This document shows positions 2,284-19,787 of a stretch of 24,305 nt of DNA, piece by piece. The notes under the pieces were generated by a model. The model did no database searches. It was not told the origin of the DNA and saw nothing but the letters and a program-made list of their open reading frames with translations. Source of the DNA: a virus (Duplodnaviria > Caudoviricetes); the IMG/VR virus record IMGVR_UViG_3300025451_000044, positions 1-24,305 of that record; one strand, given 5' to 3'. A program made the translations under genes and the position numbers. Every line of letters begins with the position of its first letter. The stretch's first letter is position 1.

Positions 2284-2776
2284 ATTTGTATACCTTCCCA
2301 ATTTGGATTGCACGAATAGCAGTCGGTGTTATTCCATATTCATCGGCAAGCTCTTTACGCGCTTTTGAAGTTAATCCGATAGAACGTATGATGCGAATCT
2401 GTTCATCTGTAACGTTTCTGAAACGACCAACGATATGCCCATTAATTGTTTCCAATTTTCGCACCGCAGCTTGTTTCTTTGAACGTAATTTTTTGTTCCA
2501 CCGTCCATCATCAACAGACATCTGTACGTTTTCTTGCCTAGTACCTACGCGCATATGATTTGGGTTAACACAACATCTGTTGTGGCACAGGTGCATAACA
2601 TCCATGTCTTTATCAACAGACCCACGGAACCACTGGTAAACAACCCTGTGAGCAAGAGAGCCAAGTGCCGCCCCGTACCCCAATCGATTAATCGAACGAA
2701 GCCACAACCAACACCCTGACATAGGCTCACGTTCAACTAGGTTGTCTATGTTTTCAGGATAGATAACTCGTTTCAC
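2276..2776 (-). CDS. Free-standing HNH (homing-type) endonuclease with C-terminal HTH
   Basis: SGCWLW, AHRVVY, VMHLCHNRCCVNPNHMRVGTRQEN nuclease motif; C-terminal LADEYGITPTAIRAI helix-turn-helix; GTGA overlap with the upstream gene. Confidence 0.92.
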   Translation of the reverse strand: MKRVIYPENIDNLVEREPMSGCWLWLRSINRLGYGAALGSLAHRVVYQWFRGSVDKDMDVMHLCHNRCCVNPNHMRVGTRQENVQMSVDDGRWNKKLRSKKQAAVRKLETINGHIVGRFRNVTDEQIRIIRSIGLTSKARKELADEYGITPTAIRAIQIGKVYKYV

Positions 2777-4041
2777 GATGTAATCCCCTGTAGTTCGGTG
2801 TTAGATAGGCGTTTCGGATAAAAAGCTAGGCGTTTGATGGTGCCGTTGAGTTGGCCTCCTGAATTTCCATCTCTTACTCCACCAATCCGTATTTGCTCAA
2901 TCGCTGGAGATATGGCTGGCAATCCAGAAGTATCAGTAGCAACAGTTGCACCATTCGTTGAAAATCCGAAATCGTTTGTCTTGTATGCAGACGCGAACTT
3001 TAACAAAGTGCCTGTGTTAGACCCGCTGGTCAAATCGGACTGGTTTACATTGGCGTTTTTAATTTGTGATTGCGGCACATTAAAGCCGTTTATAATAATG
3101 TTTATTATACTTTCGACATTGCTTGTTGGAGATAGCTGAAAGAAATGCCTGAATGAGCCACTGTAGTTTCTATTTGTCTCAACCTGGCCCTCACTATAAA
3201 GCGTCCCCTCATCAGCCCTATACCAAGATGAGAAGTTTGAGCCTGTCATACTCGCAGTATCAGCACTACGAGTTACTTGGCTGGCAACTGTTGGGATGTA
3301 GCTTGTGGGGAAAGCACCGACTTCTAGCTGTGCGCCCCAGAGGTAGATGCCGGATGTGCCGTCGCCTGTGTAGGAGCGGTCACCAAACGTAGTTGAACCC
3401 GTTGCCGTCTGGAAACCGACATATAGCGACGACCCGCCCGTTGCCGTATTAAACCCAATGGAGCACCTAAACCAGCCATTGCCAACGCTGGTAATGTTGG
3501 CTTCAGCACCAGAAGAAATAGCCCCCACGCTTCCGGCTGACAGGTTAAAGAAGGCTCCAGGGAAAGTCCCCGCTTTTGTCCTTGCTTCAAGGTACACAAA
3601 AGACCGCTCGGCGGCTTTCACGTAAATACTAGAAACACACGCTGTGTTATCCGGTAGGGTTGGGAACTGTTCAAACCGATGAACGGCATTAGTAGCAGTC
3701 TCAATCAACTTCTCTGCGGTCAGCGCACCATCTGGCGCGGTCGCTGTGTTGGCGGTGACCGTTGATCCTGACTTCACCCAAGCCGCATTATCAAACTGCT
3801 CCGAATAAGTAAGCAAGTTACTCCGCTGCTCCTCAATCAGTAACCCTTTGCTCTCACCAGTGATAGGATCATGGTCAAAACGTGCCACACCAGCGGCTGC
3901 TGTTTGCAGTACGCCGTTGGAGTCAAAATAAGTACCTGTAGAAGCACGAGAGAATGTCACACGAGGATCAAGCTGCTTTGTGTTGGCAAAGTCGAGTAGG
4001 AGAGATGGACGAATGACTGGGTAGTTTGCAGAAATGGTCAT
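2773..4041 (-). CDS. Virion fibre/spike-associated protein with carbohydrate-binding (CBM-like and ConA/LamG-like) domains
   Basis: LLLDFAN..LDPRVTFSRAS, GLLIEEQRSNLL.YSEQFDN..W, GNGWFRC, WGAQLE.G.FPTSYIPT, and C-terminal LNGTIKRLAFYPKRLSNTELQ LamG-type ending; follows the fibre gene. Confidence 0.7.
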   Translation of the reverse strand: MTISANYPVIRPSLLLDFANTKQLDPRVTFSRASTGTYFDSNGVLQTAAAGVARFDHDPITGESKGLLIEEQRSNLLTYSEQFDNAAWVKSGSTVTANTATAPDGALTAEKLIETATNAVHRFEQFPTLPDNTACVSSIYVKAAERSFVYLEARTKAGTFPGAFFNLSAGSVGAISSGAEANITSVGNGWFRCSIGFNTATGGSSLYVGFQTATGSTTFGDRSYTGDGTSGIYLWGAQLEVGAFPTSYIPTVASQVTRSADTASMTGSNFSSWYRADEGTLYSEGQVETNRNYSGSFRHFFQLSPTSNVESIINIIINGFNVPQSQIKNANVNQSDLTSGSNTGTLLKFASAYKTNDFGFSTNGATVATDTSGLPAISPAIEQIRIGGVRDGNSGGQLNGTIKRLAFYPKRLSNTELQGITS

Positions 4042-17690: not shown

Positions 17691-17864
17691 TTAAATCCTT
17701 TCTTCCCAAAATCCAGAAAACACTACTGTAGCAGTTAGGTTGCCTGTGTTGGTTACTACATAATAATAAGTGCCTGGACCAACGCCACGCTCGCTATCGC
17801 CACCATCGCCACGGTCTACAAGTAGCTTAAACAGGTTCTGCCAAAACGGCCATTTGATGTTCAT
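17691..17864 (-). CDS. 57-aa hypothetical protein, possibly an internally deleted remnant
   Basis: Manually translated: MNIKWPFWQNLFKLLVDRGDGGDSERGVGPGTYYYVVTNTGNLTATVVFSGFWEERI*. GAGGA Shine-Dalgarno, ATGA overlap with the upstream stop, fills the gap to gp6 exactly. Confidence 0.7.
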   Translation of the reverse strand: MNIKWPFWQNLFKLLVDRGDGGDSERGVGPGTYYYVVTNTGNLTATVVFSGFWEERI

Positions 17865-18466
17865 ATCAAATCCTCAAGTCTTGCTCTAGGAAAGCAAGTG
17901 ATAGCCGTTTCGCGGCTGGCATTGATTATTTCCACATGGCTGAAATCATCCGCTAATTGCTTGAACTTGTCCAGCCATTGCGATGTCAAGCCAGCGTTGC
18001 CCAAGTTATTAGGGTGATCGCCGTGCCAATGAGACTTGCCACCAGTATGGCCGCAATCAAAGCCGAGCAAGATGACACGCGCTGCACCAGCTTGTTCTGC
18101 CAAGGAAATACAACCTGCTCCTGAGTTTCCATAAATGCCGATCCCTTTAAGCTGCGTGACGTTGTACGACTGGTTTTGGCTATTGCTACTGTAGCGTCCA
18201 CCTTTGAATGTCGCGTTAATCTCGTCGATGTAGGTTTTCCACCAGTCTCTGTCGATTGCAAAAAGTGCATCTGCCCACGGCGCAATACGAAAACTGGTAT
18301 TGGCTACGATAACTGCTTTGGCTTGCGTCCCCGCTTCTTCTCGCCATCTGCGGACTCGTTCAACGTCTTGGTGGCATAGGCTGGGGCCGCTGGCAATGCA
18401 GACGACTGTTCCACCGTCCCAGCGCCCACTAAAGGGCGGTCTTGCAGCACCTTTGTCTGATAGCAC
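17861..18466 (-). CDS. Glycosyltransferase-like domain (DUF115/Maf and CstII sialyltransferase-like fold), probably made as a -1 frameshift fusion
   Basis: VVCIASGPSL, VIVANTSF..APWADALFAID, GNSG..CI.LA...GA.RVILLGFD, HWHG, IINAS motifs. Only a GTG start, 163 nt inside the upstream gene. Confidence 0.7.
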   Translation of the reverse strand: MLSDKGAARPPFSGRWDGGTVVCIASGPSLCHQDVERVRRWREEAGTQAKAVIVANTSFRIAPWADALFAIDRDWWKTYIDEINATFKGGRYSSNSQNQSYNVTQLKGIGIYGNSGAGCISLAEQAGAARVILLGFDCGHTGGKSHWHGDHPNNLGNAGLTSQWLDKFKQLADDFSHVEIINASRETAITCFPRARLEDLI

Positions 18467-18591
18467 ATTGCTAAACCTTCTTGAATGTAGAAATTGGCTT
18501 TGCGATCTGCAATTTCTACGACATCATTTTCTTTTAGGCGACCAAGTTGGTCATCGAATACTGGTTTGCGTGTTGTGATTACGATTTTCAT
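18304..18591 (-). CDS. Small head-associated protein directly downstream of the capsid gene
   Basis: GGAG Shine-Dalgarno; compact N-terminal about 50 aa (GRLKENDVVEIADRKANFYIQEGLA) then a low-complexity basic tail (KKRGRKPK) overlapping the next gene. Confidence 0.75.
   Translation of the reverse strand: MKIVITTRKPVFDDQLGRLKENDVVEIADRKANFYIQEGLAMCYQTKVLQDRPLVGAGTVEQSSALPAAPAYATKTLNESADGEKKRGRKPKQLS
18384..18436 (-). promoter_or_regulatory. Candidate programmed -1 frameshift signal: C CCT TTA plus GC-rich stem-loop
   Basis: Heptamer 18430-18436 is in X XXY YYZ phase with the 95-aa ORF (CGC CCT TTA); a -1 slip enters the glycosyltransferase-like frame (CCC TTT AGT GGG CGC TGG). Downstream GGGCGCTGG...CCAGCGGCCC can pair. 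Confidence 0.65.
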
Positions 18592-18604
18592 AATATCTCC
18601 AATG

Positions 18605-18636
18605 AAAAAGCCCCACAGCTTTTGACCGTGGGGCTT
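18605..18636 (-). terminator. Rho-independent terminator after the capsid gene
   Basis: AAGCCCCACGG-tcaaaag-CTGTGGGGCTT followed by TTTCATT on the minus strand, starting 17 nt after the capsid stop. Confidence 0.8.
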
Positions 18637-18653
18637 AATCTTACAACATTTAC

Positions 18654-19787
18654 TTAGGCAGTGATTGAACCGTAGTAAATTGCGCTTGGTTTTTCCACTC
18701 CGAAACCAAGTCGTTCCTCTGCTCTCAAAGTAACAAGGTTATTGGTGAAATCGGCATTGATGTAGCCCATTTCAACGGTAGCACCTTGACGGTTGTACAG
18801 AGCACATGCCATGTCAAACGCACCGATGGCGAAGTTGCCTTGCGTCATGTTAGCCGACAGAACGATGCGGACACCAAACGGGTTGGCGTTGCCAGCAGCG
18901 CCAGGCATACCATACAGGTAGTTACCCGAACTAGAACCTTCGCGAGTACGCTCCATCGCGCCCCAATCAGCAGGGTTGACGATTACTGCGTCAGGCATGT
19001 AGCCCTTAGCCCACAGAGCGTACTTAGCACGGTTAATTGCATCAACCAGCAGATCGCCAGACGAAGCAGTGTAAGCCGTGTAGTTGCCGCTGTCAGTGAT
19101 GCCGGACAGGTTAGGCGAAGTGCCATTGCCATTCAGCAACTGAGCGTCAACACGCTGTGCCAGGCCATCGCGCAGACGGGTTTCAATGTAAGCGACAACT
19201 GCTGGAGCGTCAGCCAGCAGTTGGTTCGATACCTTGATCCAGTGAGCAACAGTGGTGATAGGCACGTTGTACTGCTCAAACGTGAGGTCCGACTCAGGCT
19301 TGGCAGCACCTTGCGATACTTCAGCAGCATCGTTAGTCCACGAAGCTTCACGCAGCGAGTTGACCATGTTGCTGGCAACAGGAATTGCGCGGAACAGTTG
19401 ACGAATAGTCAGTGGCTTGAAGTCACCAGAGATGATGCCAGCATTTTGCTGTGGGAATACGGTAGTCGTACCAGAAGTAACGGTGTTCTTGACTTCCAGA
19501 CGAGCGCGTTGCGTATTGCCAGCAACCAATTGCTTGAAAGCATCCGACTTGATGAACTCAGCACCAGCCGTTTCAATCACAGAATCCTTAGCGGAAGTCT
19601 TGATGCCTTCCAACTTCTGCGACAGGTCGGTAATCGTCGATTCAAACTTTTCCGACAGAGCCTTAACTTCGTCCTTAGCTTCTTGCGAAACCTTGCCGTT
19701 TACTTCAAGCTGACCTTCGTATTTTTGGATAGCAGCGTCGATAGCCGACTTGTGCGAATCCAATGCTGCCTTAATTTCTAGTTCCAT
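18654..19787 (-). CDS. Major capsid protein, HK97 fold with N-terminal delta (scaffold) domain
   Basis: About 100-aa coiled-coil N-terminus ending LEVK|NT; KPESDLTF, TVAHW..VS.QLLAD, LLNGNG, F.NNLVTLRAEERL. Confidence 0.97.
   Translation of the reverse strand: MELEIKAALDSHKSAIDAAIQKYEGQLEVNGKVSQEAKDEVKALSEKFESTITDLSQKLEGIKTSAKDSVIETAGAEFIKSDAFKQLVAGNTQRARLEVKNTVTSGTTTVFPQQNAGIISGDFKPLTIRQLFRAIPVASNMVNSLREASWTNDAAEVSQGAAKPESDLTFEQYNVPITTVAHWIKVSNQLLADAPAVVAYIETRLRDGLAQRVDAQLLNGNGTSPNLSGITDSGNYTAYTASSGDLLVDAINRAKYALWAKGYMPDAVIVNPADWGAMERTREGSSSGNYLYGMPGAAGNANPFGVRIVLSANMTQGNFAIGAFDMACALYNRQGATVEMGYINADFTNNLVTLRAEERLGFGVEKPSAIYYGSITA

Follow-up and report, generated by a model that had tools for sequence, protein, structure and literature searches.

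How a phage enzyme gene is translated when its reading frame opens inside the preceding gene and offers a single GTG as start codon is the question raised by the metagenomic virus record IMGVR_UViG_3300025451_000044 (Duplodnaviria; Caudoviricetes), whose 24,305 nucleotides (nt), positions 1 to 24,305 and one complete contig, are referred to here as the window. Behind the capsid gene on the minus strand of the window, a small gene of 95 codons (18304-18591) overlaps an enzyme open reading frame (ORF) of 201 codons (17861-18466, as given by the ORF list), and a preliminary description of this DNA had proposed that a -1 slip of the ribosome at codons 52-54 of the small gene fuses its N-terminal domain to the enzyme. 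The reported overlap of 163 nt was confirmed. Based on the comparison of related loci, it appears quite probable that the small gene is joined to the enzyme by a real -1 programmed frameshift, one that is conserved in many relatives and has hitherto escaped annotation. The proposal of two products sharing an N-domain of about 53 amino acids, the longer one a 243-amino-acid form carrying the enzyme, is backed by natural fusions of the two domains, by a constrained C CCN at the junction and by the lack of conservation of the GTG.

The significance of the site in the window derives from the comparison of related loci, since the window alone provides weak evidence. An alignment search with the enzyme returned 386 viral stretches, the best 80 of which were kept; together with loci derived from the small protein and phage D3, 89 loci with the enzyme motif were obtained, representing 68 distinct junctions. 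These comprise 65 junctions of the overlap type, the stand-alone enzyme gene L057 with its own ATG, the in-frame fusion L086, and L089, a repeat of L088. Counts at the slip site cover the 64 overlap loci with a defined slip site, L088 being the 65th junction. All 65 overlap junctions share the layout of the window, with the enzyme always in the -1 frame about 24 nt past the N-domain, and with a 0-frame ORF that starts at least 59 codons upstream and extends 29-44 codons beyond the enzyme motif. An HK97-type capsid homologue (28-89% identity) was found directly upstream in 60 of the 64 loci, while the remaining four lack upstream sequence or a detectable capsid match.

The start codons of the enzyme frame provide the first line of evidence. 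No ATG, GTG or TTG occurs between the last enzyme-frame stop and the conserved VVCIASGPS motif in 55 of the 64 loci, where about 25 such start-less loci would be expected from the rate of these codons within the enzyme ORF. In 14 loci a stop codon is positioned 0-2 codons ahead of the CCC, for example TGA CCG CCC TTT in L004 and TAA CCC in L010, and 8 of these 14 are also devoid of the near-cognate starts CTG, ATT, ATC and ATA. In the window the GTG at 18464-18466 is the only ATG, GTG or TTG ahead of the conserved motif, as had been noted before. Conservation of this GTG would have spoken for an independent start, and among the 64 DNA loci it was present at that place only in the window and in L002. 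Three relatives with enzymes 73-86% identical to that of the window (L001, L008 and L016) lack the GTG and keep C CCT TT(A/G). Gene calls in this family are often truncated, with 23 of the best 120 database homologues lacking the enzyme motif.

The slip site itself was found as described earlier, with 0-frame codons 52-54 (CGC CCT TTA) containing the heptamer C CCT TTA in phase at 18430-18436 (minus strand), the sole in-phase X XXY YYZ of the small gene. After a -1 slip there, reading would continue as CCC TTT AGT GGG CGC TGG and thereby enter the enzyme frame at P(F/L)SGRW, with VVCIASGPS ten codons further on. Across the family, the 0 frame of 64 of 65 junctions reads NNC CCN, and from this site to the motif downstream the distance is 7-13 codons, mostly 8 or 10; since slip positions were picked by requiring C CC, 64/65 rather than 64/64 is the fair count. 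The single exception, L088, reads CCT TTT and offers T TTT one codon downstream. The codon before CCN specifies 11 different amino acids and always has a wobble C, whereas at the other upstream wobble positions the commonest base reaches merely 33-69%. At a mean G+C content of 58%, the proline codon at the site is CCT in 45 loci, CCC in 13, CCA in 6 and CCG in none. This CCU bias and the avoidance of CCG fit a re-pairing of tRNA-Pro, which would wobble on CCU and form Watson-Crick pairs on the -1 frame CCC. The earlier expectation that the heptamer would be conserved thus holds for the C CCN core, its phase and the synonymous-site constraint, but the full X XXY YYZ is present in only 24 of 64 loci (CCCTTTN in 18, CCCAAAG in 3 and CCCCCCN in 3). 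Among contigs from four sequencing runs CCCTTT is invariant and the seventh base alone varies between A and G.

Moreover, homologues in which both domains are fused in frame, which the preliminary description had proposed to look for, do exist. Three of the best 120 enzyme homologues, P0097 and P0106 (244 amino acids each) and P0120 (247 amino acids, encoded by L086), carry the N-domain in frame with hidden Markov model (HMM) E values of 3e-16 to 4e-21, and they join it to the enzyme as ...YQTKVLRDRPRDGRWDTVVCIASGPS..., that is, at the predicted slip junction; a fourth homologue, P0190, has a weaker N-extension. In L086 the tail of the small protein is found in no frame. Fusion at the DNA level is thus possible but rare. 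A further candidate, L021, had suggested a fusion of capsid and N-domain when frames were scanned from stop to stop, and was rejected because it is merely an open frame in G+C-rich DNA, with the capsid ending in a different frame.

The arrangement extends to cultured phages. The enzyme was detected by tblastn in 79 phage records, and the D3-type Pseudomonas phages show the layout of the window with the site ATC CCA AAG (C CCA AAG) at the same place. In D3 the annotated orf7 begins inside the enzyme, and the enzyme match starts within orf6.5 in the -1 frame. No joined coding sequence is annotated in the three D3-type records examined (NC_002484, PP083311 and PQ738200), where the enzyme is given as 152 or 134 amino acids. 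Members of the same enzyme family with 34-36% identity, namely P1 PmgO / P7 HdmB, PAJU2 ORF010 and a homologue in Klebsiella phage Eowyn, differ from the window in being stand-alone genes with their own ATG and no N-domain gene in a -1 arrangement upstream. P1 PmgN, considered as a counterpart of the N-domain, shows no likeness by eye, and pmgO occupies the +1 frame and has an ATG of its own. For these stand-alone proteins annotations alone are available, the P1 protein being labelled 'putative morphogenetic function' and the homologues in PAJU2 (L096, 7780-8349) and Eowyn (2333-2866) 'structural protein'; the latter annotation hints at an association with the virion.

Several observations weigh against a frameshift, and those at the enzyme start favour an alternative in which the window contains plain overlapping genes, the enzyme being made alone, with the GTG at 18466 as its start, and the presence of the heptamer being coincidental. 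The GTG lies 10 codons upstream of the slip site with a Shine-Dalgarno-like GAAGG 9 nt before it, the nearest protein clusters (P0081-P0092, seven of them aligned) start with ML(S/P)DKG and hence at the GTG, and the GTG is unchanged in related contigs from four runs. Stand-alone enzymes do occur, namely P1 PmgO, PAJU2 ORF010 and L057, and the heptamer of the window taken alone is near chance, with 0.13 expected over the 54 in-phase positions of the overlap. The 0-frame codon TGC for Cys43 (18463-18465, minus strand), which yields NTG in the -1 frame, is likewise compatible with this alternative, Cys43 being present in 19 of the 28 rows of the small-protein alignment A1; its retention may be a by-product, or this clade may be under selection to have a second start within the gene. 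However, an explanation by plain overlap conflicts with the loss of the GTG in L001, L008 and L016, where the slip site is retained, and with the 55 start-less loci; the residues from the GTG to the slip site are outside the enzyme profile PHROG 4603, and the C CCN constraint and the natural fusions would be left unexplained. We regard plain overlap as unlikely. Because of the GTG with its GAAGG, the starts of the neighbouring clusters and the unchanged GTG, a free enzyme of 201 amino acids may also be made in the window.

Further points on this side concern the mechanism of the shift. The 40 loci without a full heptamer would need slippage of a single tRNA on C CCN, which is taken as a -1 site only by analogy. 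The 2-nt spacer between site and stem is below the usual 5-9 nt. Upstream of the site, the search for a Shine-Dalgarno-like stimulator yielded only a shallow dip (mean -3.6 kcal/mol), similar dips being found elsewhere, and the enzyme fusion accounts for just 1 of 113 N-domain clusters. The high proportion of sites that are not canonical tandem-slippage heptamers, together with the short distance to the stem, could point to another recoding route than -1 slippage at C CCN, such as transcriptional slippage, a +2 shift or hop, or non-canonical initiation. Yet the A3 alignment of the junctions contains no long homopolymer runs on which a polymerase could slip, eight loci lack even a near-cognate start between stop and motif, and the preference for CCU and avoidance of CCG fit re-pairing of tRNA-Pro, which makes such a route decidedly improbable compared with -1 slippage.

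The same two-sided picture was obtained for the RNA downstream. The pairing stretches described earlier, GGGCGCTGG (18419-18427) and CCAGCGGCCC (18384-18393) with the inner GACGG/TCGTC, are present and start 2 nt past the heptamer. They belong to a family-wide stem of 11 base pairs, 9 of which form in the window; its 5' arm GGGCGCTGGGA (18417-18427, minus strand, A3 columns 16-26) covers the enzyme-frame codons G-R-W-D and its 3' arm TGCCAGCGGCC (18385-18395, minus strand, A3 columns 48-58) the codons (I)-A-S-G-(P), and the consensus in A3 reads GGCCGCUGGCG ... CGCCAGCGGCC. Averaged over the 64 loci, the folding energy of 50-nt segments drops to one sharp minimum, -22.3 kcal/mol, in segments that begin 5 nt into the slip site, against a background of about -10 to -17 kcal/mol. 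Between the two arms, 86.3% of the 699 alignment cells are paired, compared to 24-58% when the partner was slid; in 15 stem cells both sides have changed, and none of 500 shuffles reached the observed pairing. Natural controls that encode the same amino acids but require no shift do so with different codons and form fewer pairs (5/11 in L086 and 4/11 in PAJU2) than the median of 10/11 in the 65 overlap loci, a comparison resting on these two controls.

On the other hand, RNAalifold with default settings returned a trivial 3-pair hairpin on A3 and did not recover the stem, which was then tested as an explicit structure on that alignment, and the 86-nt fold of the window itself is unremarkable relative to shuffles (z -0.19). 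Sequences recoded with synonymous codons fold to -19.2 kcal/mol compared to -22.7 kcal/mol for the native ones (mean z -0.99; control regions -0.45 and -0.75). Since synonymous recoding retains most of the stability, the stem mostly follows from the encoded amino acids and is largely explained by GRW...ASGP. A stem is present at a fixed place; its selection as RNA is not proven.

Turning to the small protein, 80 full-length homologues of 90-116 amino acids align over the whole protein with 52-93% identity, and the gene is real along its full length. Its ATG is preceded at a distance of 5 nt by a Shine-Dalgarno sequence, GGAG (18597-18600, minus strand), read directly from the DNA. According to the ORF list, the homologues and the structure model, the product of 95 amino acids combines an N-domain, a disordered linker and the basic tail GEKKRGRKPKQLS. 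Alignment A1 (28 rows) displays a conserved N-domain, an invariant Pro53, tail columns of K/R and the basic end G-x-KKRGRKPK. In the model, residues 1-50 appear folded with a predicted local distance difference test (pLDDT) value of about 80, while residues 55-89 are predicted to be disordered (pLDDT <50). The preliminary description had stated that the 0-frame product turns low-complexity after the slip site; disorder of the tail was indeed predicted, but its length and basic end are conserved.

The N-domain shared by the two products (codons 1-53, MKIVITT...VLQDRP, 18433-18591, minus strand) was delimited by the A1 HMM, a profile search and the fold of P0120, in which it folds confidently with pLDDT 93-97. 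An HMM built from A1 columns 1-54 matches 59 of 93 loci, and an exhaustive profile search with the N-domain yielded 113 clusters, nearly all of them proteins of 49-141 amino acids. No significant family match was reached in Pfam, where L9_N and DUF7210 each matched 2 of 28 rows with best E values of 0.0024 and 0.022, respectively, and a profile search of the PDB gave a weak, sub-threshold likeness to bL9 (9qt5_G, E 0.065). Two sequence subfamilies of the N-domain occur among the overlap loci, the basic tail being found in both. With A1 as query, no homologue longer than the small protein was detected among 8000 candidates, which is weak evidence, and a scan of genome contigs for the small protein gave 63 pattern matches, 0 of which were confirmed. 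A complex prediction for capsid (A6) and N-domain (A5) scored 0.00 and is uninformative either way.

The basic tail (18307-18345, minus strand), which overlaps the codons of the variable loop WREEAGTQAKA of the enzyme, resembles an AT-hook, a motif with an R-G-R-P core and flanking K/R. The last 18 residues of the small protein contain a median of 6 K/R in the 64 loci, and [RK]GR[PK] occurs in 28 of the 64 tails, several of which read KRGRPRK; the tail of the window, KKRGRKPK, has GRK instead of the GRP of the AT-hook. A Pfam search of the window proteins returned no AT-hook match for the tail. Four relatives (L003 and L011-L013) lack the enzyme gene and have a small protein of 73-78 amino acids with the N-domain, a KKRGRK tail and the [RK]GR[PK] motif, followed directly 3' by the gene of a protein of about 200 amino acids. 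Since these enzyme-free relatives keep the tail, it is ancestral rather than a by-product, and they suggest that the enzyme start was overprinted onto a lengthened linker.

The -1 frame part following the slip (17861-18436, minus strand, stop codon at 17861-17863) encodes the enzyme domain, assigned by PHROG and Foldseek matches to a Maf/CstII/MptE-like fold. The enzyme ORF matches PHROG 4603 ('alpha-2,3-sialyltransferase') with an E value of 1.9e-53, and the profile begins at ORF residue 24, the first strand. The Pfam family PF01973 (MptE-like) was not reached at its gathering score in the window (18.8 bits versus a cut-off of 34.6), weak matches to it were found in 17 of 21 enzyme relatives (best E 3e-5), and a PDB search revealed no solved structure related by sequence. 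The P0120 fusion was modelled with both domains folded (pLDDT 94.4, predicted template modelling score 0.86), and Foldseek with this model retrieved the Maf flagellin glycosyltransferase 5mu5 (E 1.3e-5), MptE (8sd5) and CstII (1ro8) at probability 1.0, E values of 1.3e-5 to 1.7e-3, template modelling scores of 0.39-0.49 and 13-14% identity. Because of these matches the earlier label 'glycosyltransferase-like' is fair at the level of the fold, while membership in a named family is not established. Two motifs, ASGPSL and HWHGDHP, show little or no variation in the enzyme alignment A2; we take them to be the counterparts of the CstII motifs, the G-x-G-P-S-L nucleotide-binding turn and the catalytic His. 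The predicted reaction of the enzyme is the transfer of a nucleotide-activated sugar or of a comparable group.

The missing start codons, as well as the adjoining 57-residue ORF of the window, itself a deletion remnant, might alternatively be taken as signs that the enzyme ORF is no longer expressed and is decaying, a relic overprinted on the small gene. This seems most improbable, as 63 of 64 loci have an intact enzyme frame whose conservation spans about 190 codons (46-86% identity), 930 enzyme homologues were found, and the invariant motifs are kept. In L062 (357-1838) the enzyme frame is open for 494 codons, perhaps because it is fused to the following gene or because its stop has been lost.

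If the frameshift is real, the small gene would yield a plain product of 95 amino acids and, by a -1 slip at C CCU UUA, a fusion of 243 amino acids. Peptidyl-tRNA-Pro on CCU would re-pair with the overlapping CCC, exchanging a G.U wobble for a G-C pair, and in about a third of the loci, including the window, the A-site tRNA would slip as well, from UUA to UUU, while the ribosome would pause at the stem, which starts 2 nt downstream and has its G+C core at 5 nt. After the slip, translation would continue as ...P(L/F)SGRWDGGTVVCIASGPSL... to the stop at 17861. The majority of ribosomes would keep the frame and produce the tailed protein, whereas a set share would produce the enzyme with its N-domain, which could bring it to the binding partner of the small protein; candidates are the head interior, the capsid and DNA. 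More tentatively, slippage of tRNA-Pro at C CCU might link a nonulosonate-transferase-like enzyme to an L9-N-like adaptor with a DNA hook, and so deliver a metered amount of enzyme to the assembling head or the packaged DNA, where it would modify the virion or travel with the genome. Such recoding, unannotated in the D3-type records examined, would be widespread in head modules of the HK97 type, occurring in Pseudomonas phage D3 as well as in phages of freshwater and wastewater.

Similar arrangements are known from other structural modules of tailed phages. The -1 frameshift of the lambda-type tail assembly chaperones G/GT was reportedly found to be conserved by Xu, Hendrix and Duda in 2004. 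The locus described here resembles G/GT in a -1 slip within a structural module that would give a short and a long product with a shared N-terminal part at a set ratio, and in conservation by position despite divergence in sequence. It differs in that the site follows the capsid gene rather than preceding the tape measure gene, that the -1 frame encodes a folded enzyme instead of a chaperone extension, and that the 0-frame product runs 41 codons over the enzyme start, so that this region codes in two frames. Capsid-protein frameshifting occurs in T7 gene 10A/10B, and a frameshift in the major head protein of Lactobacillus phage A2 is said to have been described by Garcia et al. in 2004. In both, as proposed here, a -1 slip in a head gene adds a C-terminal extension, and C CCA AAG in D3 belongs to the same class of heptamers; unlike in T7 and A2, the shifted gene is a separate gene of 95 codons, not the capsid gene, and the appended part is an enzyme of about 190 amino acids. 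In E. coli dnaX, a -1 frameshift at A AAA AAG with a downstream stem-loop truncates the protein to give tau and gamma. The present sites share with dnaX a bacterial slippery site followed by a stem-loop and possibly an upstream Shine-Dalgarno-like element, but this element is weak, most sites are C CCN and the shift would not truncate. PMC6787027 deals with the thermodynamics of dnaX frameshifting. With regard to the enzyme, Maf (5mu5), CstII (1ro8) and MptE (8sd5) share the fold, and Pfam gives a weak MptE-like match; the domain in the window is much smaller than Maf, and its similarity to these proteins remains at 13-14% identity and below the Pfam gathering cut-off.

We know of no other such phage frameshift with an enzyme in the shifted frame, so that this one, if true, would be the first. 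No published description of a frameshift between this small gene and the enzyme was found in the literature searched, which left subscription journals outside, and nothing relevant emerged in the literature on PmgO, DUF7210, PAJU2 or D3 in combination with frameshifting. Likewise, looking up terms in a 2016 recoding review (PMC5009743, first 300,000 characters) and in the PRFect paper (PMC10885494) gave no mention of the arrangement. If confirmed, the site would be the third conserved frameshift site in structural modules of tailed phages, beside the tail chaperone and the capsid extension, and would account for the truncated or start-less annotation of a common phage 'sialyltransferase' gene. 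A rule for annotation follows from the layout, namely to look behind the capsid gene for a small gene with NNC CCN and for the enzyme in its -1 frame. Single-tRNA-Pro -1 slippage would then be a natural signal, and phage D3 could serve as a cultured model for the role of a virion-linked Maf/CstII-like enzyme.

The window as a whole is occupied by the head-to-tail module of a phage, with genes on the minus strand in the order large terminase, portal, protease, HK97-type major capsid (18654-19787, Pfam Phage_capsid, E 5e-44), the 95-codon gene, the 201-codon ORF, a 57-codon ORF and a gp6-like head-tail connector. Near-identical DNA was found in further sequencing runs from freshwater and wastewater. 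A hairpin resembling a terminator, with 12 pairs followed by a T run (18608-18636, minus strand), separates the stop of the capsid gene from the small gene and could lower the transcription of the genes behind the capsid. At the corresponding place in L002, capsid and small genes are separated by an inserted ORF of 232 amino acids (2306-3004), which has Cys pairs and a motif of the H..N..H type and looks, by eye, like a homing HNH endonuclease. The ORF of 57 amino acids (17691-17864, minus strand), as judged by comparison with L001 and L002, is the in-frame deletion remnant of a protein of about 200 amino acids (PHROG 13935, of unknown function), which L001 (3728-4330) and L002 encode in full. 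In this region the near-identical contigs L006 and L007 have slightly different deletion end points.

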